From the IMG/VR virus record IMGVR_UViG_648276671_000014: a stretch of DNA of 24,740 nucleotides. One strand, written 5' to 3'. Of this stretch, positions 1 to 21,001 are shown piece by piece. A program made the position numbers and the translations under genes. The notes beneath the pieces were generated by a model, which saw nothing but the letters and a program-made list of their open reading frames with translations, was not told the origin of the DNA and did not search any database. The number at the start of each line of letters is the position of its first letter. The first letter of the stretch is position 1. The stretch comes from a virus. Lineage: Duplodnaviria > Heunggongvirae > Uroviricota > Caudoviricetes.

Positions 1-1056
1 TTATTGCGGGGTAATGCCAACCGCTGCCGCCACTTTGTCGCCATTTGGTAACGTTGCCAGTGGATTGAAACGGAGCGCCGTTTCCAAATGATCCGGTGCC
101 AGATGCGCATAACGCATAGTCATTTTTATATCGTGGTGTCCGAGAATTTTTTGTAAGGCCAAGATGTTTCCACCCGACATCATGAAGTGCGCCGCAAACG
201 TATGGCGCAGAACGTGTGTCAGTTGACCGCGAGGGAGAACGATAGACGTTTTTTCCATCACGGATAAAAATTGAAAATAGCAGTCTGTGAAGAAATTGAA
301 CCCATCGAGCGCCATGATCTCTTCATAAAGCTCTTTACTGATAGGGATGCTTCTGTTTTTCTTCCCCTTCGTTCTCACAAAGGTGATTCGGTACTTGGTG
401 ACCTGTGAGCGGGTAAGATTGATTGCTTCTCGCCAACGTGCGCCTGTACTTAGACATATTTTTACCACCAGTGCCAGAATTGGGTTCTGACGTTTGCAGT
501 CAGACAGTAATTCGATAATCTGCTCATGTGTAAGCCATGCCATTTCCTTTTCTGCGATAGTGAATTTGCGCATCTTCTCTAATGGGTTTGGAAGTGTCCA
601 TTCACCCAGGCGGGAAAGTTCTCTGAAAACGCTGCTTAGATGGCTTTGCTCCAGGTTAACAGTAACTGGGCTTGCTCCTTTCTTCCATTTTTCACTGAAG
701 TAGATTTCACCAGTAAGGCGTTTATCGCGATAGTGAGCAAACATTTTTGAGGTGAGATCAGTTGCAAGGGGATTTCCCAAGGCGTCAACCATCAACAGCA
801 GCTTGTTGTAGACATGCTGTCCGGCAGTAAGAGATTTGCCATGTAATTTGAACCATAGCTCAACCATATCTTTCAGTGTCCGACGATCCACTGATTCGCC
901 CAGCCAGGGCTTTGCTTCTATTTCCCCCATGGTGTATCGCTCGAAGGCCAGTGCTTCGCCTTTGGTGGCGAATTGTTTACGCACACGACGCCCATTACGT
1001 CCGGCGGGGTAACATTCGCAAAGCCATTTCCCTGTGGTGAGTTTTCGTACTGCCAT
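1..1056 (-). CDS. int: Tyrosine integrase, P2/186 family (351 aa from the internal ATG; the ORF track's 403-aa form has an unlikely N-terminal extension)
   Basis: N-terminus MAVRKLTTGKW...GRNGRRVRKQF and C-terminus with HxxR ... RYAHL fit the remembered P2 Int pattern; stop codon at 1-3; ATG at 1056 placed by offset in the ORF translation. Confidence 0.9.
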   Translation of the reverse strand: MAVRKLTTGKWLCECYPAGRNGRRVRKQFATKGEALAFERYTMGEIEAKPWLGESVDRRTLKDMVELWFKLHGKSLTAGQHVYNKLLLMVDALGNPLATDLTSKMFAHYRDKRLTGEIYFSEKWKKGASPVTVNLEQSHLSSVFRELSRLGEWTLPNPLEKMRKFTIAEKEMAWLTHEQIIELLSDCKRQNPILALVVKICLSTGARWREAINLTRSQVTKYRITFVRTKGKKNRSIPISKELYEEIMALDGFNFFTDCYFQFLSVMEKTSIVLPRGQLTHVLRHTFAAHFMMSGGNILALQKILGHHDIKMTMRYAHLAPDHLETALRFNPLATLPNGDKVAAAVGITPQ

Positions 1057-1244
1057 AAAAAATGCCCTCCAGTAGAGAGCATTTTCACTGTATGTATAAC
1101 CAGTGTCAATGTATGAAATCCTACGACCATACATCTCACTGAAGCCATAATTAAGTTGGCTATTCTTTTTGCTATGTGAGCATGTAATTTTTGCGGTTAA
1201 CCTGCGGCTCATTTTTATTTTAGGCGCAGATATAAAAGCAAAAG

Positions 1245-1451: not shown

Positions 1452-2021
1452 CTATTTAACATACTTGACTGTTAAACTTATAATTTTACCAATTATTTCA
1501 ATGTCTTCTATCTTGCATTCGAAGGCTCTGTTTCCACCCTCGACGAAGATTCTTCCACCGGGTAAACGAGTAATGTCACGGATCGTTATTTCGCCATCAA
1601 TACTTATTACCCATTTACCATCACGTATATCATCAAATTCCTTATCACAAATAAATTCAAAATTATTATCTGTGATTACAAAAAGATTCTTGAATGCCGA
1701 CGGTAGAAATTCCCTATCGAAAATATAAAAACCGTCTTCACACAAGGCCCCATCAGATAATACATATTTAGCAACTTCCATAGTATTTGTATTACCTGAA
1801 GTTTGCTTTGAACCATGCCCGGTTGTGAGCCAATTAAGCGAGGTGCCCGTTTCAAGGGCGCACTGGATTACCCATTCTGCGGGGAATGAGTCACGCATGT
1901 AGCGTGTGGCGAGTGTACTTTTAGAGATTCCTAAATGATCGCACAACGCCTGTCGAGTCTTGAATCCATAAGCTTCTACCATGCGCTCTATAGCGCCTCG
2001 TCCGCCTTTCTCCAAATTCAT
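1452..2021 (-). CDS. cI: 186-type CI immunity repressor (189 aa from the ATG at 2021; ORF track starts at a GTG at 2027)
   Basis: Length about 190 aa and motifs AYGF..., CALETG..LNWL, ISIDGEITIRDITRLPG match remembered 186 CI. GGAG Shine-Dalgarno 5 nt upstream of the ATG at 2021; the GTG at 2027 overlaps that Shine-Dalgarno. Confidence 0.85.
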   Translation of the reverse strand: MNLEKGGRGAIERMVEAYGFKTRQALCDHLGISKSTLATRYMRDSFPAEWVIQCALETGTSLNWLTTGHGSKQTSGNTNTMEVAKYVLSDGALCEDGFYIFDREFLPSAFKNLFVITDNNFEFICDKEFDDIRDGKWVISIDGEITIRDITRLPGGRIFVEGGNRAFECKIEDIEIIGKIISLTVKYVK

Positions 2022-2045
2022 GGTCACTCCAAGTGAACTTTTGTC

Positions 2046-2368: not shown

Positions 2369-2400
2369 TTCGATTCTGAAATACATCAGAGGCATTGACC

Positions 2401-2910
2401 ATGTTTGATTACCAAGTTTCCAAACATCCACATTTTGATGAAGCCTGTCGTGCATTCGCATTGCGCCACAACTTGGTGCAACTGGCAGAACGTGCAGGCA
2501 TGAATGTGCAGATTCTGCGGAACAAGCTGAACCCAGCGCAACCTCATTTATTAACCGCACCAGATATCTGGCTGCTTACTGATCTGACAGAAGACTCAAC
2601 ACTGGTAGATGGTTTTCTGGCACAGATTCATTGTCTGCCATGTGTACCGATTAATGAGGTGGCAAAAGAGAAACTGCCGCATTACGTCATGAGTGCAACC
2701 GCAGAGATCGGGCGTGTTGCTGCAGGTGCGGTATCTGGCGATGTAAAAACCAGTGCAGGTCGTCGTGATGCTATCAGCAGCATTAACTCTGTAACACGAC
2801 TGATGGCGTTGGCTGCTGTTTCATTGCAGGCCCGTTTACAGGCTAACCCTGCGATGGCGAGTGCAGTTGATACCGTGACTGGCCTAGGTGCTTCATTCGG
2901 TTTGCTGTGA
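2401..2910 (+). CDS. cII: CII-like lysogeny establishment activator (169 aa)
   Basis: [20 protein letters not shown]... with the [22 protein letters not shown] and ...GASFGL segments; 169 aa matches remembered 186 CII; Shine-Dalgarno CAGAGG 8 nt before the ATG at 2401. Confidence 0.85.
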
Positions 2911-3974: not shown

Positions 3975-4201
3975 TGGCTGATGCAATGGATCTCGTACAG
4001 CAGCGAGTTGAAGAAGAACGCCAACGTCATATCCGTGCTGCCCGTGCCAAAACACCGGGCGTGTCCCGCGTGCTTTGCGTTGAGTGTGAAGCGCCAATTC
4101 CGCCAGCACGCCGTCGTGCCATTCCGGGTGTGCAGCTTTGCATTACCTGTCAGGAAATCGCAGAGCTGAAAGGCAAACATTACAACGGAGGTGCTGTATG
4201 A
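3974..4201 (+). CDS. TraR/DksA-family C4 zinc-finger protein (75 aa)
   Basis: CVEC...(16 aa)...CITC pattern near the C-terminus; translationally coupled on both sides. Confidence 0.75.
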   Translation: MADAMDLVQQRVEEERQRHIRAARAKTPGVSRVLCVECEAPIPPARRRAIPGVQLCITCQEIAELKGKHYNGGAV

Positions 4202-5055
4202 GCACCATCCTGAAATGGGCGGGAAATAAAACCGCCATTATGTCCGAACTGAAAAAACACCTTCCTGCTGGCCCGCGACTGGTTGAACCTTTCGCGGGTT
4301 CCTGTGCTGTGATGATGGCGACGGATTACCCCAGCTATCTGGTTGCTGATATTAATCCTGATTTAATCAACCTCTATAAAAAGATTGCCGCTGATTGCGA
4401 AGCGTTTATATCTCGTGCCAGAGCTTTATTTGAGGAAGCAAACAGGGAGGTGGCTTATTACAACATAAGGCAGGAGTTTAACTGCTCAACTGAAATTACT
4501 GACTTCATGAAAGCAGTATATTTCCTGTATCTCAATCGTCACGGTTACCGTGGGTTATGTCGCTATAACAAGAGCGGGCATTTCAACATTCCCTACGGTA
4601 ATTATAAAAATCCGTATTTCCCTGAAAAAGAAATTCGCGCATTTGCAGAGAAAGCCCAGCGAGCAACGTTTATCTGCGCCAGCTTTGATGAAACGCTGGC
4701 GATGCTGCAGGTGGGGGATGTGGTGTATTGCGATCCGCCTTATGACGGTACGTTTTCCGGCTATCACACTGACGGCTTCACTGAAGATGACCAGTATCAC
4801 CTGGCATCTGTTCTTGAATATCGATCATCAGAAGGTCATCCAGTCATTGTTTCTAACAGTGACACATCCCTGATCCGTTCGCTGTATCGAAATTTCACTC
4901 ACCACTACATCAAGGCAAAACGCAGCATCGGCGTGTCGGCTGGCGAGAGTAAATCTGCAACAGAAATCATTGCTGTTTCCGGGGCGCGCTGCTGGGTGGG
5001 ATTTGATCCTTCGTGTGGCGTGGATAGTTCTGCTGTGTACGAGGTGCGTATATGA
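4198..5055 (+). CDS. dam: Dam-like N6-adenine DNA methyltransferase (285 aa)
   Basis: N-terminal LKWAGNK...EPFAGS (AdoMet-binding) and catalytic DPPY motif; [14 protein letters not shown] segment resembles E. coli Dam; GGAG Shine-Dalgarno, start overlaps the upstream stop (ATGA). Confidence 0.85.
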
Positions 5056-7466
5056 GTCATGACGATATGAGCAACTCTAGCGGCTTTAACGAGGCCGCTG
5101 CAGCATTTTCATGGAACGGCCCGAAAAAGGCCATTAACCCTTATCTGGACCCGGCGGAAGTTGCGCCGGAGTCTGCACTTTCAAACCTGATCACTCTGTA
5201 CGCTGCCGATAATGAGCAGGAACAGCTGCGCCGCGATGCACTGAGTGAGCAGGTCTGGGAGCGTTATTTCTTTAATGAATCTCGTGATCCTGTCCAGCGC
5301 GAAATGGAGCAGGATAAGCTCATTAGCCGGGCAAAGCTGGCGCATGAACAGCAGCGTTTTAACCCGGACATGGTCATTCTGGCGGACGTCAGCGCCCAGC
5401 CCACCCATATTAGCAAGCCGCTGATGCAACGTATCGAATACTTCAGCAGCCTGGGCAGGCCAAAGGCTTATTCCCGCTATTTGCGTGAGACGATTAAGCC
5501 ATGTCTGGAGCGACTGGATTGTGTACGTGACAGTCAGCTGTCTGCTTCTTTCCGTTTTATGGCAAGCCATCAAGGGCTGGAGGGCCTGCTGATCCTGCCT
5601 GAAATGAGTCAGGATCAGGTGAAACGCCTGTCCACCCTGGTAGCTGCGCATATGAGCATGTGCCTTGATGCAGCTTGTGGCGATTTGTATGCCACCGATG
5701 ACGTTAAGCCAGAAGAAATCCGCAAGACATGGGAAAAGGTGGCGGCGGAAACCCTGCGTCTGGATGTCATCCCACCTGCGTTTGAGCAACTCCGTCGGAA
5801 AAGAAACCGCCGTAAACCCGTGCCCTATGAACTCATTCCGGGTTCGCTGGCGCGTATGTTGTGCGCCGACTGGTGGTATCGGAAATTATGGAAGATGCGT
5901 TGCGAATGGCGGGAAGAGCAGTTGCGTGCTGTCTGCCTGGTCAGCAAAAAAGCATCTCCCTATGTCAGCTATGAAGCCGTGATGCATAAACGTGAGCAGC
6001 GCCGTAAGTCGCTGGAGTTTTTCCGTTCTCATGAACTGGTGAACGAAGACGGCGACACGCTGGACATGGAGGATGTGGTAAACGCCAGCAGCAGCAACCC
6101 TGCGCATCGCCGCAATGAGATGATGGCCTGTGTTAAAGGTCTGGAGCTTATCGCGGAAATGCGCGGTGACTGCGCCGTTTTCTACACTATCACCTGTCCG
6201 TCACGTTTCCATTCCACGCTCAACAACGGCAGACCCAACCCAACCTGGACAAATGCGACGGTAAGACAAAGCAGCGATTATCTGGTCGGCATGTTTGCTG
6301 CATTTCGTAAGGCAATGCACAAAACCGGGTTGCGCTGGTATGGCGTACGGGTGGCTGAGCCGCACCATGACGGTACTGTGCACTGGCATCTCATGTGCTT
6401 CATGCGTAAAAAAGACCGCCGCGCCATCACTGCATTACTGCGTAAGTTTGCCATCCGTGTAGACCGCGAGGAGCTGGGCAACAATACGGGGCCACGCTTT
6501 AAGTCTGAGCTGATTAACCCGCGCAAAGGAACACCGACAAGCTACATCGCGAAATACATCAGTAAGAACATTGACGGGCGTGGTCTGGCTGGCGAGATCA
6601 GCAAGGAAACGGGTAAATCCCTGCGTGATAACGCCGAATACGTCAATGCCTGGGCGTCTCTGCATCGTGTTCAGCAGTTCCGCTTCTTTGGTATTCCGGG
6701 ACGTCAGGCTTACCGTGAACTTCGCTTGCTGGCTGGTCAGGCGGCAAGGCAACAGGGTGACAAAAAAGCAGGTGCGCCGATACTGGATGACCCGCGCCTT
6801 GATGCCATCCTGGCTGCTGCTGATGCTGGTTGTTTTGCCACCTACATCATGAAGCAGGGCGGCGTACTGGTTCCCCGTAAATATCACCTTATCAGAACCG
6901 CTTATGAAATCAACGAAGAGCCGACCGCCTATGGCGATCACGGCATTCGTATTTATGGCATCTGGTCACCCATTGCAGAGGGCAAGATCTGCACTCATGC
7001 AGTGAAGTGGAAAATGGTTCGTAAGGCCGTTGACGTTCAGGAGGCGGTAGCCGACCAGGGCGCTTGCGCCCCTTGGACTCGTGGCAATAACTGTCCCCTT
7101 GCTGAAAATTTGAACCAACAAGGGAAAGACAAATCAGCTGATGGGGATACCAGGACGGACATTACCCGCATGGATGACAAGGAGTTGCACGATTACCTGC
7201 ACAGTATGAGCAAAAAAGAGCGCCGGGAACTGGCTGCAAGGTTACGCCTGGTGAAACCGAAACGGCGTAAAGACTACAAACAGCGAATTACAGACCATCA
7301 GCGACAGCGGCTCGTCTATGAACTGAAGTCCAGAGGATTTGATGGCAGCGAGAAAGAGGTCGATTTACTCCTTCGCGGCGGCAGTATTCCGTCAGGAGCA
7401 GGCCTGCGTATCTTCTATCGGAACCAGCGTTTGCAGGAAGATGATAAGTGGCGAAACCTGTATTAA
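5052..7466 (+). CDS. A: Replication initiation endonuclease, gpA/RepA type (804 aa)
   Basis: Large early ORF in the expected position and size, with the tyrosine-containing [12 protein letters not shown] segment remembered from P2 A family proteins; start overlaps the dam stop. Confidence 0.9.
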
Positions 7467-7818: not shown

Positions 7819-8052
7819 ATGCGCATTGAAATAATGATCGATAAAGAGCAGAAGATTAGCCAGTCTACCCTGGACGCCCTTGAATCCGAGCTTTACCGCA
7901 ATCTGCGCCCCCTATATCCAAAAACGGTAATTCGCATCCGCAAAGGTAGCTCTAACGGTGTGGAACTGACTGGACTGCAACTGGACGAAGAAAGGAAGCA
8001 AGTGATGAAAATTATGCAGAAGGTGTGGGAAGACGACAGCTGGCTGCATTAA
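7819..8052 (+). CDS. DinI-family protein (77 aa)
   Basis: MRIEIMIDKEQ...LDALESEL...VWEDDSW parallels remembered E. coli DinI (MRIEVTIAK...IDALAGEL...TWESADDW); GAGGTG Shine-Dalgarno 5 nt upstream. Confidence 0.8.
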   Translation: MRIEIMIDKEQKISQSTLDALESELYRNLRPLYPKTVIRIRKGSSNGVELTGLQLDEERKQVMKIMQKVWEDDSWLH

Positions 8053-8322
8053 GAAACGTTGCTGGCGTCTGAACTTGCTTCTGGCGTCAGCAAGGTTGAA
8101 CAACGAGCTATGCGAGGCGTTAGTGTCAATTTGTTACCTTAACCACTATATATGCCAGGAAATTAACAGTTCTTAAGAAACCGCTTGCATGATCGAGCGC
8201 ATTGAACTTAAGTTTAAGTAACGAAATCAACAGATGATATTGTTGTCTAAATTTTAAAGATAATCTGTTGAGGTTGTAGGCGTCGGAGTGTAGACTTCCG
8301 CGCCATGTGAAAAGGGGGAGTT

Positions 8323-8538
8323 ATGTCAAGCATCGCCGCATTTAGCCTGGGTAACCCAGTTGAACGTCTGGCAAGGGTTCTTAAAGAGAACCAGGACAAA
8401 CTCAATCTTAGTAAAGATGGTTTTGTGTCCGTAGACTTGTCTAACAAAAGAGCAATGGATGCCATCAAGGCACAGATGGATAAGCTTGAAGGCATCAAAA
8501 CGAGCACTGTAAAAGAGAAAACTAATAGAACCAGATAA
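8323..8538 (+). CDS. Hypothetical protein (71 aa), first gene of an AT-rich cargo operon
   Basis: GGGGGAG Shine-Dalgarno before ATG 8323; hydrophilic; stop overlaps the next start (TAATG). Confidence 0.55.
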   Translation: MSSIAAFSLGNPVERLARVLKENQDKLNLSKDGFVSVDLSNKRAMDAIKAQMDKLEGIKTSTVKEKTNRTR

Positions 8539-8738
8539 TGGCAACATTACTTTTAGCAGTGATTTTGGTTAGTGGTTTTATTTATGTAAACCTATCACTT
8601 TCAACAAGATACCGATATAAGCGTTCCAACGGCTGGGACGCTTATTTTTTGTGGCTGCCTGGGGTATCGTTTTTTTCTCCTTGGCGGTTTTTTCACCTTT
8701 ATTTTGAACGTCAGCGGAGGGTTTCGTTGGCTGGCTAA
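8538..8738 (+). CDS. Small membrane ORF (66 aa), probably the N-terminal fragment of a frameshifted multi-pass membrane protein
   Basis: Translationally coupled ATG; hydrophobic helix LLLAVILVSGFIYVNL; reading frame ends just after three poly-T tracts. Confidence 0.4.
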   Translation: MATLLLAVILVSGFIYVNLSLSTRYRYKRSNGWDAYFLWLPGVSFFSPWRFFHLYFERQRRVSLAG

Positions 8739-8772
8739 TGCCTTGAATCTAACACCTGACAGTTTTAATGGC

Positions 8773-9378
8773 ATGTTGTCTTCATCGAAAGACAAACTTC
8801 AAAGAATAAATGAAATCAAACAGATAGCATGGGTTATGATTTCAATTGTTCTCGCTGCGATTTCAGGTTTTGGAAATAAGTTACGCACATCACGTGGAGA
8901 TCGTCGCTGGGATGCCTTAGCTAAAGCTGTGGGTAATAACGCTTTCGAATCATTACTCATGGAAGCGTCCGCAAGACAGTTTCCGATCATAGCAACTCTG
9001 TCGTCTCGCAAAATCTATGTTGGTCTTGTTACTTGTCCGGCGTTAGAAAACGGGCTTTCAGAACACCTTGAACTTCTCCCGATGTTAAGCGGATATCGGG
9101 ATAAAGATGATCTAACGATTAGTATCACGACTAACTATCACCAACATTATCTTGATAGTGGTGTGATAAGTGGAATGTCTCGGCTTAATATCGAAGATTT
9201 CCGTGTGCTCATACCAAAAGATGAGGTTGAAACAATTTCGTTTTTTGATACTGAGACATATAACAAATTTAAAGAAAATGAAGCCAGGGATAGAAAGAAC
9301 TGTCGAAAGATTGGTAGTAAAAGTGCATCTTCGCGCAGCAAGCGTGCAGCAGATGCTGAGTCAAATGATCGTGCATGA
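8773..9378 (+). CDS. Hypothetical protein (201 aa from ATG 8773; frame is open from 8590), probably the C-terminal continuation of the 8538 gene
   Basis: No Shine-Dalgarno before ATG 8773 or the upstream TTG 8704; frame stays open back into the 8538 ORF; hydrophobic segment IAWVMISIVLAAISGF then a soluble domain. Confidence 0.45.
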   Translation: MLSSSKDKLQRINEIKQIAWVMISIVLAAISGFGNKLRTSRGDRRWDALAKAVGNNAFESLLMEASARQFPIIATLSSRKIYVGLVTCPALENGLSEHLELLPMLSGYRDKDDLTISITTNYHQHYLDSGVISGMSRLNIEDFRVLIPKDEVETISFFDTETYNKFKENEARDRKNCRKIGSKSASSRSKRAADAESNDRA

Positions 9379-9426
9379 CTATGCTGCATGAGATCGCATG
9401 ATCGTTTGAGGATCGTTTTTGCTAAG

Positions 9427-9450
9427 GCCCGCCAGAACTGGCGGGCTTTT
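9427..9450 (+). terminator. Rho-independent terminator (GCCCGCCA-GAAC-TGGCGGGC then TTTT)
   Basis: Perfect 8-bp GC-rich stem followed by a T run, 49 bp after the operon stop. Confidence 0.6.
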
Positions 9451-9495: not shown

Positions 9496-9514
9496 GGCGT
9501 GGCGGGGATACGAG
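9496..9514. other. Candidate cos cohesive-end site (GGCGTGGCGGGGATACGAG)
   Basis: First 13 nt match the remembered 186/P2 cohesive end (GGCG[T/A]GGCGGGGA...), followed by TGCGCG as in P2; lies between the early region and portal gene Q. Confidence 0.4.
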
Positions 9515-9657: not shown

Positions 9658-9685
9658 GAGCATTTTAGAGTGTTCTTTGCCTAAC
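9648..9685 (+). repeat. Perfect 12-bp inverted repeat (GTTAGGCAAAGA ... TCTTTGCCTAAC) forming a long hairpin ending 1 nt before the Shine-Dalgarno of the downstream ORF
   Basis: Arms at 9648-9659 and 9674-9685 are exact reverse complements; the loop can pair further with G-U pairs. Confidence 0.8.
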
Positions 9686-9697
9686 AGGATACGTAAA

Positions 9698-10447
9698 ATG
9701 ACTGATGACGAGATTAAAAATATTTTCCATGCTCAAACTGATAATGTTAGAGAGCTTGAGAAAGTCTGGAAACAAATAGTCAAAGAAATTAATACTGCAT
9801 TACGAACAGATAATGCAGTCCAAGTTGCACTTAAAACCAAAATGCTAGGTTTGGTTTTTTGCGCTCTTGCCGAAGCTCAATTTTCAAAGTTGATCCACAC
9901 GCCCGGTCAATTTTCCCCTAATGAAATAGAACAGATTAAATATGCAGCTTCATCTAATGTCTCAGATGGATGGTTAAAGTGCATAAATTTGGCTACGAGA
10001 CGACTATCGAAAGGCACAAAGCATAATCATGTTCCTAATGTTATTCAGGAGCTTGAAAGACTAGTTGATGATTTTATAAAAGCGCCAAGTTTAATTAGAA
10101 ATAAAATTGCGCATGGACAATGGGTTGTCGCTCTTAATAGAAAGAATACACATGTGAACTCAGAAATGACACATACTTTGCGTAATTTGACAATAGTGGA
10201 ATTAACAAAGTTTAAAGATGCTTTCACGAGAATGTCGCGAATAGTCGAAGATATTATTAAATCTCCTAATAAAGCTCATTTGCGTGATTATTGGCCGCAG
10301 CTTGAAGAGTTTAGAGCAAAGCAAAAGGAAATGGATAGTTGGACTCTTGCTGAAAAAGTCTTCCAATTAAAAAAGAAATATAATTACTCATCTAATATGA
10401 GATGTGAATCATGCGGTCAGTTACATGTTGATAGAAATAAACAATGA
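9698..10447 (+). CDS. HEPN-motif protein (249 aa), candidate RNase or abortive-infection effector
   Basis: AGGA Shine-Dalgarno 8 nt before ATG 9698; R134-N-K-I-A-H139 fits the HEPN Rx4-6H signature; AT-rich codon usage unlike the phage core. Confidence 0.65.
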   Translation: MTDDEIKNIFHAQTDNVRELEKVWKQIVKEINTALRTDNAVQVALKTKMLGLVFCALAEAQFSKLIHTPGQFSPNEIEQIKYAASSNVSDGWLKCINLATRRLSKGTKHNHVPNVIQELERLVDDFIKAPSLIRNKIAHGQWVVALNRKNTHVNSEMTHTLRNLTIVELTKFKDAFTRMSRIVEDIIKSPNKAHLRDYWPQLEEFRAKQKEMDSWTLAEKVFQLKKKYNYSSNMRCESCGQLHVDRNKQ

Positions 10448-10537: not shown

Positions 10538-11581
10538 TTAGTTATCTTCTGTCCTGAGCGAGTAAAAGCTAAAACGGAGAATTTCTTCACCAAGCCAGTT
10601 ATTTAGTTCCTGTAAACGTTTCTGCAGTGACATTAGTTCATTGCGTACAAAAACGCGACTAGCTTTCTCCACATCCCCAAATCCCCCAACATTATTTGGC
10701 ATTATCCCCATCATCTGTGGCGGCACGCGGTGCGCTGCCATCATGTCATCCCGACTCACGTTCTTGATATTAAGAAATTCATCCTTCGCCGCGACTTCTG
10801 ACAATGGGATGATCTGAAGCCCGTCCTTTTTGCCGTTAGGCGAGTACATAAACAGGTTGCGGAAGTTGCCTGGACCTTTGGCGCTTTTCATCGCGTTGCG
10901 GAGGTTGTTCACATCTTCCTGGTTCTGCGCGGCATCGGTCATGTACATGATGAAGCCTGCATGGCTGCCGTTGATGTAATACTTACGGCGGAACAGCGTG
11001 GCAGACTCGTTGAGCAGGGCGGATGGAATGGCAGAAAGATAGCCGGGCAGGCCGTAGATCTCCTGGTTGATGTCCGGTTCCATCAGATGAAAAATGCTGC
11101 CTTTCGTGAACTGATACGGCTGGGTTGTCATACCGTATTGCACAAACCAGTAGGTATCCAGGTCTAACCCGCGTCGGGTGTATTTTGCCAGCGCAGGCTC
11201 AAGGGCGATAACTTCACCGAATCGGTTCGTGCGTTTCTCCAGGTAGGCGTTACCAAATACCAGATAGTCCTGCACAAAACGCGAAAAAGCCTGCTGGCTG
11301 AGCAGCGGATGAGGGATATAGGTACTGGTCAGAATGTTGCACTTTACTGCAATCGGGGAACTGTGATGCACGGCGGCGCGGAAGGTGCGCGCCAGTCCGT
11401 TAAAGCTGACGGGCGGCTCATACCAACGGTCCATCTGTACGCATTCCACATAGTCCAGCAGTTCACGGCGGTCCAGAACAGGAACGGGATCGCCGAAGCT
11501 GAATGCTTCGGCTGTAGTTTGACTTTTAAGCTGGATCTGTTTCGTCGCCGCAGCTCGGTTCTTCTTACTCTTTCCCATCAA
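10538..11581 (-). CDS. Q: Portal protein gpQ (347 aa)
   Basis: Size and position immediately after cos and upstream of P as in P2/186; stop overlaps P (ATGA). Confidence 0.9.
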   Translation of the reverse strand: MMGKSKKNRAAATKQIQLKSQTTAEAFSFGDPVPVLDRRELLDYVECVQMDRWYEPPVSFNGLARTFRAAVHHSSPIAVKCNILTSTYIPHPLLSQQAFSRFVQDYLVFGNAYLEKRTNRFGEVIALEPALAKYTRRGLDLDTYWFVQYGMTTQPYQFTKGSIFHLMEPDINQEIYGLPGYLSAIPSALLNESATLFRRKYYINGSHAGFIMYMTDAAQNQEDVNNLRNAMKSAKGPGNFRNLFMYSPNGKKDGLQIIPLSEVAAKDEFLNIKNVSRDDMMAAHRVPPQMMGIMPNNVGGFGDVEKASRVFVRNELMSLQKRLQELNNWLGEEILRFSFYSLRTEDN

Positions 11582-13344
11582 AAAATCTCCACAATATTGC
11601 TGGTATTGGCGGATTCGCCCTGCAGCGGTTCGTTAAACAGTGCGTGCATCGTTGCCCATGCCAGATCGGCGTGGCTGGCTTCTTCGCTGCGGCTGGCTTC
11701 ATAGGTCGGGCGGTTGCCACTGGCGGTGGTGGCGCGACGGATTGCCATAAATGACTGCGCAATGTCGGTATGTCCGGCGTCAAACTCCAGACGGCGGTGG
11801 CTGATAATGTCGTAGGCCTTGAGTACCAGGGCGTTTTTAACGTTGGGGTTGTAGACAAACTCCCGGACGGCAGGAAAGAACGCTTTCACGTTCTCGTAAA
11901 CCCCGTGACCAACGCCGGTTGAGTCGATGCCGATGTAGGTCACGTTGTACTGCTCGGTCAGTTTTTTGATTGCGTCAGCCTGGGCGCGGAAGTCCATCCC
12001 GCGCCACTGGTGACGCTCAAGAATGCGAAACTTACCGCCCGGCACGGCTGGCGGTGCCACCACCACGCATCCGGCGCTGTCGCCGTTCTGCGTACCTTTT
12101 GCCGGGTCATAACCGATCCACACTTCGCGCCAGCCAAACGGGCGCAGGGCCAGAGCATGAAAGTCGGTCCAGACTTCCCAACTGTCCACCATGCACGCCT
12201 GCAGCTCGCTGAGCGGAAACACGGACGCGAGATCGTCCACAAACTCGCACATCAGCAGGTTCTGGTATTCGTCCAGGCTGTACTCCATGCGCAACTGGTC
12301 GAGGTCGAACAGGTTACAGCCGCCGCGCACCGCATCTTCCACAGTGACTATCTGGCGGTACTGCCCGTCTGCGCACAGCAGGCCGGGGGCCAGATTGCTG
12401 TGGGACAGGTCGATGTCCACCTTATCGGCTTTGTTGCGCCCACGATTGAACAGCGCACCGGACCAGAACGGATAAGCACTGTGAGTCAGGCTGGATGGCG
12501 TGGAAAAATAGGTTTGTCGCCATTTTTTGTGAATAGCCATCCCGGAAGCCACTTTGCGCAGCTCCTGGAATTTCGGTATCCAGAAATATTCATCCAGATA
12601 CAGGTTGCCGTGGTAACTCTGGGCCGTGCGGGCATTGGTGCCGAGGAAGTAAAGCGTGGCTCCGTTAGGAAGCACCATCGGATCGCCTTTTAGCTCTACC
12701 TCGACTTCTTTGGCGAAGTCGATGATGTACTGCTTAAAGACGTGAGCCTGTGCCTTACTGGCGGAAAGGAAAATCTGGTTACGTCCGGTAAGCAGGGCGT
12801 CAATCAGGGCTTCACGGGCAAAGTAAAAGGTCGCGCCGATCTGGCGTGACTTCAGCAGGTTGCGGATGCGGTTGGTTTTTCCGGCTTCCCACCAGTGGCG
12901 CTGGTAGTTGAACATGGAGGAATGGAAGATTTCTTCCAGTTTCTCAATCTGTTCATCGGTGAAAACATTCTTTTCCGGCTGACGGCGCGGGCCCTTATTG
13001 CGGTTGGCGACGTTAGGGTTTAAGTCAGCTTCGTTGCCGCCATTGTTAAACTTGCCGATCCGCGCGTGGCGCTCCGACTGGCGCGCCAGCAGGTCAATTT
13101 CTTTGAAATCTTTCCCTTCTTTATGCTCCTTCATGATGAGCTGGCAGTAGCGTGCGGCGGTGGTGAGCTGCATCTGATCCAGCGGCCCATAGTCACCCCA
13201 CTTGTCGCGTTTTTTCCAGCTGTGAACGGTTGCAACTTTCTCGCCCAGCATTTCAGCAATGCGGGCTACGCGGTATCCCTGAAAGTACAGCAGCATGGCC
13301 TGCCGACGGGGATCGAGATCTGCGGGTGTCAGTGTGGTGTTCAT
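11578..13344 (-). CDS. P: Terminase large (ATPase) subunit gpP (588 aa)
   Basis: Size matches P2 P; divergent from O across the late promoter region. Confidence 0.9.
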   Translation of the reverse strand: MNTTLTPADLDPRRQAMLLYFQGYRVARIAEMLGEKVATVHSWKKRDKWGDYGPLDQMQLTTAARYCQLIMKEHKEGKDFKEIDLLARQSERHARIGKFNNGGNEADLNPNVANRNKGPRRQPEKNVFTDEQIEKLEEIFHSSMFNYQRHWWEAGKTNRIRNLLKSRQIGATFYFAREALIDALLTGRNQIFLSASKAQAHVFKQYIIDFAKEVEVELKGDPMVLPNGATLYFLGTNARTAQSYHGNLYLDEYFWIPKFQELRKVASGMAIHKKWRQTYFSTPSSLTHSAYPFWSGALFNRGRNKADKVDIDLSHSNLAPGLLCADGQYRQIVTVEDAVRGGCNLFDLDQLRMEYSLDEYQNLLMCEFVDDLASVFPLSELQACMVDSWEVWTDFHALALRPFGWREVWIGYDPAKGTQNGDSAGCVVVAPPAVPGGKFRILERHQWRGMDFRAQADAIKKLTEQYNVTYIGIDSTGVGHGVYENVKAFFPAVREFVYNPNVKNALVLKAYDIISHRRLEFDAGHTDIAQSFMAIRRATTASGNRPTYEASRSEEASHADLAWATMHALFNEPLQGESANTSNIVEIF

Positions 13345-18498: not shown

Positions 18499-18937
18499 AT
18501 TGCAGAAGGTGGACGACTGGCTGAGTGCCTTGCTGGTGAATCTGGAGCCAGCCGCAAGAAGCCGTATGATGCGCCAACTGGCGCAGGAACTGCGCAGGAC
18601 ACAACAGAAGAACATCAGGATGCAGCGCAATCCAGATGGCAGTAGTTATGAACCGCGACGGGTAACAGCACGCAGTAAAAAGGGGCGTATCAAACGTCAG
18701 ATGTTTGCAAAGCTGCGCACCACAAAATACCTGAAAACTGCCGCCAGCGCCGATTCTGCCAGCGTACAGTTTGAAGGTAAGGTACAGCGCATTGCCCGTG
18801 TTCACCATTACGGTCTGCGTGATCGCGTAAATAAAAAAGGTTTAATCGCGAAATATCCGCAACGTACTTTATTGGGCTTATCTTATAAAACAGAAGAAAA
18901 TATTATTATGAGCATAAAGGAGGAGCTATCAAAATAA
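18491..18937 (+). CDS. S: Tail completion protein gpS (148 aa); last 25 or so codons lie in AT-rich DNA
   Basis: GTG start overlapping the R stop; position and size as P2 S. Confidence 0.8.
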   Translation: MAELQKVDDWLSALLVNLEPAARSRMMRQLAQELRRTQQKNIRMQRNPDGSSYEPRRVTARSKKGRIKRQMFAKLRTTKYLKTAASADSASVQFEGKVQRIARVHHYGLRDRVNKKGLIAKYPQRTLLGLSYKTEENIIMSIKEELSK

Positions 18938-18977
18938 AGACGAGGAGGTTTAAATAACCCTCTCGTCTTTTGTTTTT
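18938..18977 (+). terminator. Rho-independent terminator after S (AGACGAG stem / CTCGTCT then TTTGTTTTT)
   Basis: Hairpin with a 7-bp perfect core plus a T-rich tail, directly after the S stop. Confidence 0.55.
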
Positions 18978-19203
18978 ATCCATAAGCCAGCTCCTGTGGA
19001 GATGGCGATTGATTAGCTGTTCATGTAAGAGTTAAATAGAGCTGAGATTTTTTGTGTATCCGTAACTGGATCAGTCGATGAGCCTTGTCTGATATAAAAC
19101 ATATTCTCAAAGTCGCAAATTTGACCTGTGCTCTGAATAGTTATCTTGAGTATGTGTAAGCCATTGTAAGAGCAAAACTCAATATTCTTAAGTATCTGCT
19201 GTT

Positions 19204-20787
19204 TTAGAGTTTCAGTGAAATCGTATCCTTGTATTTTTGTTTTATTAACATAAAGTAATCATCAATGCTACCAGAGACTAACATTGCTTCATGATCAATT
19301 CCGTTTATATAGAACCCATTGAACTCAATTGAATTTACTCCATATAAATGTTGAATTCTATCTGCGGTTAATTTATTTTCGGCAATACCAACTAAAATAT
19401 AGCCTTTTGCGCTTTTTCCAATATTATTTATTGCTACGCAAGTTTGTAATATTCCTTTTAAACATTCATCATCAAATTCATTTTTACCTGATAAATTAAA
19501 GAACCCCTGTTTGAAATCATAACTTGGTTGTTCAGTTCTAGAATTTGTTAATAGATTGCGAATTTCAGTTACCCAAGCATGATTCACATACTTTTGAGGA
19601 GCAGGTTGGAAGTAGCGACTTATTAATGCAACAAGATCATTAACACTTTTTTCACGAGTGCTTGCAGCCCAGCGGCCACCATCGGTAACCATAATTATGG
19701 TATTGCCAGTGTTTTTTAATTGCGAGAATAAACCTTCTTTATCAATTAATTGCATATTTTGGTTGAAAAGAAGTTCATAAATAGACAAAAACACAGCTTG
19801 ATAATAACGAGGGCATTCTTGAGATGAATTATCCTCCCCTAAAATATGGCTTCTAAAAGTATCATTTTTTCCGTCATATAGGCTTGTAATTAATTCATAT
19901 ACAGCTATGAAATTCTGCTTAATAGTGGCAGCGTTATTGGTTTGAATGAAAGACTCTAATTGCTGTCTGACACCATGAGCATGAGAGGAGTTTCCTTGAC
20001 CATAGAATGTGTCGAGAGAAGTTGACCCAGATGTGGGTTTTTCTTCTAGACTGATATATGCAAGGATATTGGCTATCAATTCCTCGTCATCAGAATCACG
20101 AATACTTCGTCTTGTTAAAATATGATGTTTTATATAAAAGTGGTTATCGATATTTACCCCGTACTCCAATCTATCGTTACTGATTGAAATTTTGTGCATT
20201 TGCTGGAGATTCATAATGTCAGAATGGCTAGTATCACCTCTGATCGATGTTGATATCGATCTGACCAGTTCAGAGAAGTTACTAACTGTTCCTGCACTAC
20301 GTAATTCTTGTTTGGATAAAATCTTCCCGTTTGAGTTTATTCGTCTGAATACTTCGTCAATATTTTCATTTGTGGAGCTATATTCTGATATTGCAAATCG
20401 ATAACGTGCAATAATTGCTGAAGAATCACGGGAAAGAATTGGTTCTTTCTGAATTAAAGTTCCATTATCTTTAAGTTGTTTTGTTAAAGCTATAGAGTCC
20501 AAATCAAAATATTGTCCATCTAATGAAAATCTCTGTTCGATGAAGCTCATAATTGCTTCTAATCTTTGCATTCCATCCAATATTTCTCTTTGTTCATTGA
20601 TGGTAACAAATAATAATAACGGAATAGGATATTGTTGCAGCATAGAAGATATTAAAGAAGTCTTTTCTTCTAGAGACCATACAAGTTTCCTTTGATAACG
20701 TCTATTGACTATCAAATTTCCTTGCAAATACCATTCGTATAATTGCTCGGTAGTCCTTGAGTCAATATCAAGATTTTCATTTGGCAT
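19204..20787 (-). CDS. DUF262 (ParB/Srx-like, DGQQR-type) domain protein, 527 aa, with an unassigned C-terminal half
   Basis: AAGGAG Shine-Dalgarno 7 nt before ATG 20787; N-terminal motifs NRRYQRKLVW and DGMQRL match the DUF262 signature; no DUF1524-type EHI.P motif seen; strongly AT-rich and opposite in orientation to the flanking late genes. Confidence 0.8.
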   Translation of the reverse strand: MPNENLDIDSRTTEQLYEWYLQGNLIVNRRYQRKLVWSLEEKTSLISSMLQQYPIPLLLFVTINEQREILDGMQRLEAIMSFIEQRFSLDGQYFDLDSIALTKQLKDNGTLIQKEPILSRDSSAIIARYRFAISEYSSTNENIDEVFRRINSNGKILSKQELRSAGTVSNFSELVRSISTSIRGDTSHSDIMNLQQMHKISISNDRLEYGVNIDNHFYIKHHILTRRSIRDSDDEELIANILAYISLEEKPTSGSTSLDTFYGQGNSSHAHGVRQQLESFIQTNNAATIKQNFIAVYELITSLYDGKNDTFRSHILGEDNSSQECPRYYQAVFLSIYELLFNQNMQLIDKEGLFSQLKNTGNTIIMVTDGGRWAASTREKSVNDLVALISRYFQPAPQKYVNHAWVTEIRNLLTNSRTEQPSYDFKQGFFNLSGKNEFDDECLKGILQTCVAINNIGKSAKGYILVGIAENKLTADRIQHLYGVNSIEFNGFYINGIDHEAMLVSGSIDDYFMLIKQKYKDTISLKL

Positions 20788-21001
20788 AATTTTTCTCCTT
20801 GTTAGATTGAACTTATATATTGTCAATAAACATCTTTTGTGTCAAAGATTACATAGTAACTGCCTAAATTAATTGGCTTTTAATAATTAAAGACGTAGCT
20901 TTCAAGTGCTTTTTTAAGAGCATTGAACTTCTTAACTTGCGCAACGTCATTCGACCTTTTGCAACGTATTAATGCTCTAACGCAGACCATTGAAAGGCAT
21001 T

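Follow-up and report, generated by a model that had tools for sequence, protein, structure and literature searches.

The interval between gene A and the cos site or portal gene Q of P2, where tin and old are found, is a hotspot of anti-phage cargo and an experimentally established reservoir of such genes (Rousset et al. 2022, PMC9122126). Cargo in this slot is AT-rich and is swapped between near-identical prophages. In phage lambda, the prophage-encoded RexA/RexB system joins a cytoplasmic protein to a multi-pass inner-membrane protein. Protein architecture offers further points of reference. Sm/LSm/Hfq proteins combine an N-terminal helix with a bent, five-stranded beta-barrel, and Sm folds characteristically form six- or seven-membered rings. 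Channels of the MscS family place an Sm-like beta domain on the cytoplasmic side of three transmembrane (TM) helices, which run with the N-terminus out and the C-terminus in, and add a C-terminal alpha/beta vestibule domain. Here, we analyze a two-gene cassette at positions 8323-9378 of a 24,740-nucleotide (nt) stretch of DNA (IMG/VR virus record IMGVR_UViG_648276671_000014; hereafter the window), whose source is a 186/P2-type prophage. The cassette encodes a hydrophilic protein of 71 amino acids (aa) and, in its intact form, a 280-aa membrane protein in which three TM helices precede a cytoplasmic barrel of the Sm-like fold class. The pairing of both genes is conserved, and we lean slightly towards the view that intact copies serve defence or phage exclusion on behalf of the prophage.

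The cassette lies between gene A and portal gene Q, which is encoded on the minus strand. Its GC content is 0.39-0.43, compared to 0.53-0.60 in the core phage genes. Downstream, at 9496-9508, follows the single occurrence in the window of GGCGTGGCGGGGA, which we take to be cos by its likeness to the cos sequences of P2 and 186. A first-pass annotation, made by a model from the letters of this DNA, had described an AT-rich cargo operon in the position of tin/old, just upstream of cos, and this placement is confirmed. Indeed, both protein accessions of the cassette (WP_000094764 and WP_000212611) are listed for the P2 hotspot in Table S5 of Rousset et al. (PMC9122126), where they are entered as 'hypothetical + hypothetical'.

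The membrane-protein gene is disrupted in the window and appears as two open reading frames (ORFs), 8538-8738 and 8704-9378. The first ORF overlaps the small gene by a TAATG stop/start signal for translational coupling and stops after 66 codons. The second runs to 9378 from either 8704 (TTG, 224 aa) or 8773 (ATG, 201 aa), lacks a Shine-Dalgarno sequence and has a frame that is open back to 8590. All these elements, as well as the 71-aa hydrophilic ORF, which is preceded by a Shine-Dalgarno sequence, are read in the sequence as previously annotated. The same annotation had joined both ORFs into one protein of about 280 aa. A survey of 5,426 complete E. coli genomes supports this reading: 52 have the locus, 50 of them at least 99% identical to the window, and in 49 of these 50 near-identical copies the interval measures 843 nt and forms a single coding sequence (CDS) for a 280-aa protein (WP_000212611.1). 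The proposed single frameshift has to be replaced by two contractions of one nucleotide, each in a different T-run. Compared over 1,301 nt to the intact reference copy of E. coli Ec1115 (L001; operon at 3077110-3078167 of NZ_CP126614.1), the window shows no substitutions and two differences, namely one missing T in each T-run. These contractions are the sole internal indels over a 4.3-kb alignment that also contains 141 substitutions. Between the T-runs, the true frame is the third frame, reading FVAAWGIVF. We are therefore highly confident that the two ORFs belong to one gene that requires two single-nucleotide insertions for its repair to 280 aa. The cassette as sequenced in the window is non-functional.

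The repaired protein belongs to a large family of single proteins. Its close homologues in Enterobacterales, Aeromonas and Shewanella form 57 clusters, all of them single proteins of 239-336 aa, and one exact E. coli variant is present on at least 1,000 contigs. An exhaustive profile search among representatives at 50% identity returned 2,889 sequences at E<=1e-3, of which 2,018 reached E<=1e-10; almost all of the top 150 measure 240-300 aa and align end to end. The protein matches phrog_3630 with E=3.3e-99 (residues 1-270 of the 274-position profile), a PHROG annotated as 'unknown function'. The source names are 'hypothetical protein' throughout, save a few evidently spurious labels (HrcA, DUF2207). 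Pfam returned no match for the E. coli protein at E<=1 and none for 40 diverse members at E<=0.01, nothing above chance was found in NCBIfam or in a sequence search of the PDB, and in a scan of PADLOC-DB v2.0.0, with HEC and PD-T4/PD-Lambda models among those returned, the only match was at chance level (E=0.14). The earlier statement that no family could be recognized accordingly holds for the curated libraries, with PHROGs of unknown function as the sole matches.

The AlphaFold model (mean pLDDT, the per-residue confidence score, of 79) agrees with hydropathy on the three hydrophobic segments and the soluble C-terminal domain that had been proposed from the letters. Helices at residues 2-19, 33-60 and 87-119 match the three hydrophobic peaks and are followed by two short helices. 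Residues 136-236 then form a helix and a five-strand barrel (pLDDT 75-91), and the C-terminus is one long basic helix (239-278) of low confidence. The loop after the first TM helix, RYRYKRS, has four basic and no acidic residues, and the segment after the third, NKLRTSRGDRR, is strongly basic. Because of these basic segments, the positive-inside rule predicts a periplasmic N-terminus and a cytoplasmic barrel and C-terminus. Across the 40 diverse members (21-44% identity), invariant residues are Y36 in the second TM helix and K159, Y161, G163, P182, S185, G186, R188 and Y201 in the barrel. Going by the order of the strands, several of these barrel residues would be near the loops that form the nucleotide pocket of Sm rings. 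Variability is highest, and the model poorest, in the periplasmic loop (residues 60-93).

The small protein is basic and carries a conserved core 'KDGxVSxxLxN', a beta-hairpin, followed by a helix. It has 29 close homologous clusters and matches phrog_9843 (E=1.4e-36, residues 1-66 of the 66-position profile), again annotated as 'unknown function'. Scans of the protein and 35 homologues against the family libraries used for both proteins (Pfam, NCBIfam, PADLOC) gave nothing above chance: no Pfam family, no family of PADLOC-DB v2.0.0 and, in the PDB, no sequence stood out. Weak OspA matches in PDB profile searches reflect the beta-hairpin pattern only and were discarded. The AlphaFold2 model, a helix-hairpin-helix, has low confidence (pLDDT 63), and a model this weak would fit a protein that folds on a partner. 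In NCBI and UniRef, the 71-aa protein and its homologues (P0059-P0083) are widely called 'multidrug ABC transporter ATPase'. This label is a propagated mis-annotation since the protein is far too small and has no such domain.

The two genes travel together. We examined 80 loci from species-representative genomes, all of them coding for a relative of the membrane protein. The membrane gene is a single ORF in 73 of them, and in nearly all 80 an ORF of 55-100 aa is located directly upstream on the same strand, in most loci with an overlap of 1, 4 or 13 nt or a gap of up to about 20 nt. With the 71-aa protein as its starting point, an iterative profile search recovered 51 of these upstream ORFs and had no other match among the ORFs of approximately 1 Mb of flanking DNA. 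Those not recovered, in Pseudomonas, Shewanella and Acidobacteria, show the same core, a hairpin of the pattern 'KDG/GRG-x-hydrophobic-S/x-hydrophobic-N/D' with an amphipathic helix. Purifying selection acts on both genes: the ratio of nonsynonymous to synonymous substitution rates (dN/dS) amounts to 0.18-0.22 in the small gene and to about 0.04-0.05 in the membrane gene, where dS is close to saturation. The first-pass annotation would have been contradicted by homologues that consistently occur as two separate genes, or by the lack of a conserved association between both genes. Neither was found: single membrane genes make up 73 of the 80 loci and all 57 clusters, and a small ORF precedes the membrane gene in nearly every locus, 51 times linked by profile.

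Within the membrane ORF, a 12-bp stem with five GC pairs (8617-8645; -16.8 kcal/mol, z -4.3) leads directly into the first T-run, which counts six T's in the window and seven in intact copies. A stable stem-loop with an immediate U-tract is the hallmark of an intrinsic terminator, and the element combines both. In 18 homologues with 45-100% protein identity, the codons that build the stem are nearly fixed: AAG for K28 (18/18), CGT for R29 (17/18), TCC for S30 (15/16), GAC for D34 (16/16), GCT for A35 (17/18), TAT for Y36 (18/18) and TTT for F37 (18/18), while the loop codon G32 varies freely. Outside the hairpin, 89 columns combine a conserved amino acid with a degenerate codon, and not one of them has zero codon entropy; the mean codon entropy is 0.29 bits in the hairpin versus 1.41 elsewhere (Mann-Whitney p = 2e-5). 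In an alignment of 20 sequences, 90.7% of the cells are paired, against 31-49% when the partners are slid. Compensatory pairs occur in Erwinia (U-A to C-G, at the cost of an Asp-to-Gly change) and in Aeromonas (U-G to G-C, alongside Ser-to-Ala and Asp-to-His changes). The fixed synonymous codons and the pairing data together show that the hairpin structure is under nucleotide-level selection. It is confined to the Enterobacterales/Aeromonas clade and absent in distant subfamilies. With its U-run, the hairpin resembles an intrinsic terminator or attenuator placed after codon 38, which would leave most transcripts coding for the small protein only. Expression of the membrane component appears to be restrained.

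How the window copy came to be broken can be explained in several ways: it is either a pseudogene that arose recently by slippage or the product of sequencing errors in homopolymers. The loss of one T from each of the gene's two longest T-runs puts it out of frame; in the intact form, these runs would be the longest homopolymers of the entire window. Sequencing or assembly errors at these runs, with an intact, functional cassette in the true genome, are a serious possibility that we stop just short of favouring. Over the 1,301 nt, the differences from the Ec1115 copy consist of nothing other than these T losses, a pattern characteristic of errors on pyrosequencing, Ion Torrent and nanopore platforms. 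However, all core phage genes of the window are full length, its other runs of seven show no visible disturbance, and replication slippage favours the same sites. Since error and genuine slippage predict the same pattern, the T-run losses alone do not separate them. E. coli MIN9, a RefSeq complete genome, has the contraction of the first T-run alone (842 nt, split gene), so that such variants exist or recur. The membrane gene is also split in seven of the 80 species-level loci (L017, L019, L024, L036, L050, L056, and L043 with the C-terminal ORF only), among them loci of Symbiopectobacterium, Enterovibrio, Xenorhabdus, Photorhabdus and Psychrobacter; several of the seven come from symbionts. 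Together with MIN9, these cases indicate that inactivation recurs while most copies are still intact. Length variants in two independent genomes, and the preservation of the first T-run in the DNA of relatives with protein identities as low as about 55%, might also be taken as signs of a programmed on/off switch of the membrane protein, by phase variation or by transcriptional or translational slippage. We regard such a switch as very improbable. The conservation of the first T-run is accounted for by its Tyr-Phe-Phe codons and its role as the U-tract of the hairpin, which weakens the case for phase variation. In addition, the second T-run is restricted to the E. coli lineage, 49 of the 50 copies are in frame, runs of seven to eight are short for efficient slippage, and a rescue in the window would need two events. 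The window copy is best handled as frameshifted until its T-runs are re-read.

The cassette occupies several kinds of genomic sites. In the P2 A-Q hotspot we find 14 loci as well as the copies of phages SEN4/SEN5 and Klebsiella ST15-OXA48phi14.1; the copies are swapped between otherwise near-identical prophages, and the neighbouring genes vary (DUF4062, PIN, SEFIR, SieB, DUF262/DUF1524, or three hypothetical genes). Elsewhere, the cassette is inserted among lambda-like tail-tip genes, at the K-I junction in Enterobacter hormaechei and at the L-K junction in Haemophilus and Nicoletella, in the integrase-attP interval of Cronobacter phage phiES15, near a similar integrase in Mangrovibacter, beside the repressor of Pseudoalteromonas phage C5a, at a prophage edge in Shewanella, adjoining the endolysin of a Snodgrassella prophage, and in chromosomal islets amid housekeeping genes in Pseudomonas, Photorhabdus, Neisseria, Psychrobacter and Acidobacteria. 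Such a spread over several cargo slots and islets is the distribution of a self-contained mobile accessory module. An apparent match of the C-terminal domain only (49% of the query) in phiES15 proved to be part of a full-length, annotated gene of 272 aa with its own small ORF upstream. The occupation of two different tail-tip junctions (L086, 7775-8801; L040, 5734-6723; L039) suggests that the lambda-like tail region is also a recurrent cargo site. In the Snodgrassella alvi prophage (L063, 5710-7735), a single case, the cassette is located about 530 nt upstream of the endolysin gene. The three-TM layout with the N-terminus out and the C-terminus in also fits class I holins.

The resemblance to described systems is one of architecture and setting. 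The cassette shares its slot, its AT-richness and its exchange between near-identical prophages with the tin/old type of cargo, whereas it has no sequence relation to P2 Tin, Old or the PADLOC models. The Lambda RexA/RexB system is the model for the action that we propose below. No sequence or fold similarity to RexA/RexB or to other membrane-effector defence systems was found; moreover, the partner in the cassette has only 71 aa and comes first in the operon, and the membrane protein has a cytoplasmic Sm-like domain of its own. This domain has the N-terminal helix and the five-stranded bent barrel of the Sm/LSm/Hfq fold. Its identity to Sm/LSm/Hfq and to WYL sensor domains of related fold (BrxR, CapW, DriD) is 10-20%, and no Pfam LSM, Hfq or WYL match that would reveal Sm1/Sm2 motifs was obtained for the E. 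coli protein (E<=1) or the 40 diverse members (E<=0.01). Unlike these proteins, the domain is anchored to three TM helices, and a long insertion separates its strands 4 and 5. A structure search of BFVD returned only unnamed Sm-like phage proteins. Similar to MscS-family channels, which are of comparable size, the membrane protein places an Sm-like beta domain behind three TM helices with the topology that the positive-inside rule predicts. The MscS vestibule domain is not seen, the barrel being followed in the model only by the long helix of low confidence. Homology to MscS at sequence level was considered and rejected (no Pfam match; hhalign probability 0.13% against an E. coli MscS sequence). 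Finally, the small, coupled upstream gene and the patchy mobile distribution over prophages and islets are also features of type II toxin-antitoxin (TA) operons, yet no TA family of Pfam or NCBIfam was matched.

Within the defence or exclusion role towards which we lean, we propose a specific mechanism with considerably more reserve, as a rather doubtful reading built on analogy. The membrane protein would oligomerize via its Sm-like domain into a ring and thereby bundle 18-21 TM helices. Once triggered, this ring would perturb or permeabilize the inner membrane, resulting in abortive infection. The small partner may bind the cytoplasmic domain, either as inhibitor or as trigger, and the hairpin with its U-run would hold the membrane protein scarce relative to that partner. 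An abortive-infection effector is favoured because Sm rings would gather the TM helices in an MscS-like manner, and because a coupled small partner and an attenuator are expected for a dangerous product. Sensing inside the cell is suggested by the location of the most conserved parts in the cytoplasm. An exclusion role is also in line with the prophage cargo contexts, which include neighbours of defence type (PIN, DUF4062, SEFIR, DUF262). In its widest form, which we consider unlikely, the proposal is that of an undescribed, widespread anti-phage system in which a membrane-anchored Sm-like ring senses a cytoplasmic cue, gates an MscS-like TM bundle and collapses the membrane potential, with a dosage set by the terminator inside the ORF. 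Candidates for the cue are a phage protein, a nucleotide and a nucleic acid, and the 71-aa partner might present or mask it.

Several observations weigh against a defence role and its mechanism. The family has no experimental link to defence and no PADLOC match, its sequence is not among the cloned and tested systems in the supplementary tables of Rousset et al., and literature searches by accession, by PHROG identifier and by 'Sm-like + transmembrane + anti-phage' gave no description of it; the 'LSm' mentioned in the AbjA preprint is a microscope model. Part of the cargo of the P2 hotspot is non-defensive, comprising partition systems and toxins (PMC9122126). Many members are located in chromosomal islets that have neither phage nor defence neighbours (e.g., in Pseudomonas, Photorhabdus and Acidobacteria), and upstream of 8323 no sigma-70-like promoter is seen, so that expression in the lysogen is only presumed. 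The proposals of oligomerization and pore formation extrapolate from how Sm folds behave and from the architectural analogy with MscS, which the hhalign comparison does not support, and the model of the small protein is of low confidence. The hairpin is restricted to one clade and could serve another purpose, such as mRNA stability.

Two other functions have to be weighed in this light. Proteins such as T4 Imm, P22 SieA and HK97 gp15 block the entry of incoming phage genomes without killing the cell, and superinfection exclusion of this type, with an inner-membrane block and a surviving cell instead of abortive infection, would suit a prophage-encoded inner-membrane protein. The variable periplasmic loop is what would be expected of an arms-race surface facing phage ejection proteins, and the repeated insertion within tail-tip gene clusters recalls exclusion morons such as cor and lom, which also sit there. 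The strongest conservation, however, is found in the cytoplasmic Sm-like domain with its polar invariant residues, and the partner is cytoplasmic as well, both needless for a simple entry block, and we consider this explanation improbable. A TA-like addiction or stabilization module, or other cargo with no anti-phage role, serving for example membrane or ion homeostasis of the lysogen, seems equally improbable. A small upstream gene with a stop/start overlap to a larger downstream gene resembles TA operons, an intragenic attenuator would keep a putative toxin low, many copies reside in islets apart from phage genes, and the layout of three TM helices and an Sm-like domain recalls MscS channels. 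Against this, no TA or channel family is matched, and copies of the cassette are concentrated in cargo slots of prophages where exclusion genes abound. In addition, TA and abortive-infection roles are not mutually exclusive. On balance, a role of intact copies in defence or phage exclusion is the reading that we retain.

The coordinates of the cassette and its surroundings are compiled in Table 1. The two-gene locus is not the sole cargo of the window. Between the cos-like site and portal gene Q, a 256-aa ORF (9677-10447, plus strand) matches phrog_12663 (5.9e-13) and gives only a sub-threshold hint of HEPN_MAE_28990 (E=0.051); in relatives, its slot is occupied by DUF4062, PIN, SEFIR or three hypothetical genes. 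A second AT-rich island (18800-21000, GC content 0.30-0.36) separates tail gene S from baseplate gene V and contains an ORF (19204-20826, minus strand) for a 540-aa GmrSD_N/DUF262 protein (Pfam 1.4e-17, PADLOC NsnA 2.5e-23, PD-T4-2_A 1e-17). This island is probably another defence cargo slot. Just 3' of the DinI-like gene, a strong hairpin that lacks a U-tract (8055-8097; -23.5 kcal/mol, z -4.9) may act as a terminator, serve in processing or mark a recombination boundary of the cargo slot.

Table 1. Features of the cassette, followed by those of the surrounding prophage, in window coordinates.
Feature	Position	Strand	Details and basis
Shine-Dalgarno sequence of small gene, AGGGGGAG	8313-8320	+	Sequence read directly
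Small partner gene	8323-8538	+	71 aa, hydrophilic, basic (pI 9.9); ORF, phrog_9843
TAATG stop/start overlap (translational coupling)	8536-8540	+	Sequence read
Membrane-protein gene	8538-9378	+	Intact form 843 nt, 280 aa, WP_000212611.1; Ec1115 alignment, phrog_3630
TM helix 1, residues 2-19	8541-8594	+	AlphaFold2 model, hydropathy
Conserved 12-bp hairpin into T-run 1	8617-8650 (stem 8617-8645)	+	Codons 27-38; terminator scan
TM helix 2, residues 33-60, conserved GWDAYFFVAAWG	8634-8715	+	Spans both T-runs
T-run 1, first frameshift	8645-8650	+	T6 here, T7 in intact copies
T-run 2, second frameshift	8670-8676	+	T7 here, T8 in intact copies
TM helix 3, hydrophobic core, residues 94-112	8815-8871	+	Followed by basic segment, predicted cytoplasmic
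Sm/LSm-like beta-barrel domain, predicted cytoplasmic, residues 136-236	8941-9243	+	
Putative operon terminator, GC-rich hairpin and UUUU	9424-9450	+	-23.4 kcal/mol, z -4.65
Cos-like site, GGCGTGGCGGGGATACGAG	9496-9514	+	3' boundary of cargo slot; sole window match to GGCGWGGCGGGGA
Integrase	1-1212	-	
CI repressor	1452-2027	-	
CII	2395-2910	+	
Dam-type methylase	4138-5055	+	
Replication protein A (gene A)	5052-7466	+	
DinI-like gene	7819-8052	+	
Portal Q	10538-11581	-	
Terminase	11578-13344	-	
Head and tail genes	past 13344		

In summary, the cassette is unannotated P2 cargo, yet it is not rare: its family comprises thousands of sequence clusters in Gamma- and Betaproteobacteria and Acidobacteria and has no curated family or name. 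Should the widest form of our proposal be true, the membrane protein would be the first defence effector to use an Sm fold tethered to the membrane. In a recent survey of the related P4 satellites, six out of eight unannotated cargo loci picked at random proved protective (PMC13586616). Three features recommend the cassette as a candidate for experiment, namely an Sm-like domain tethered to the membrane, a small partner that is obligate and a terminator-like hairpin maintained by synonymous-codon constraint, and its intact copies are a good candidate for testing as an anti-phage system.

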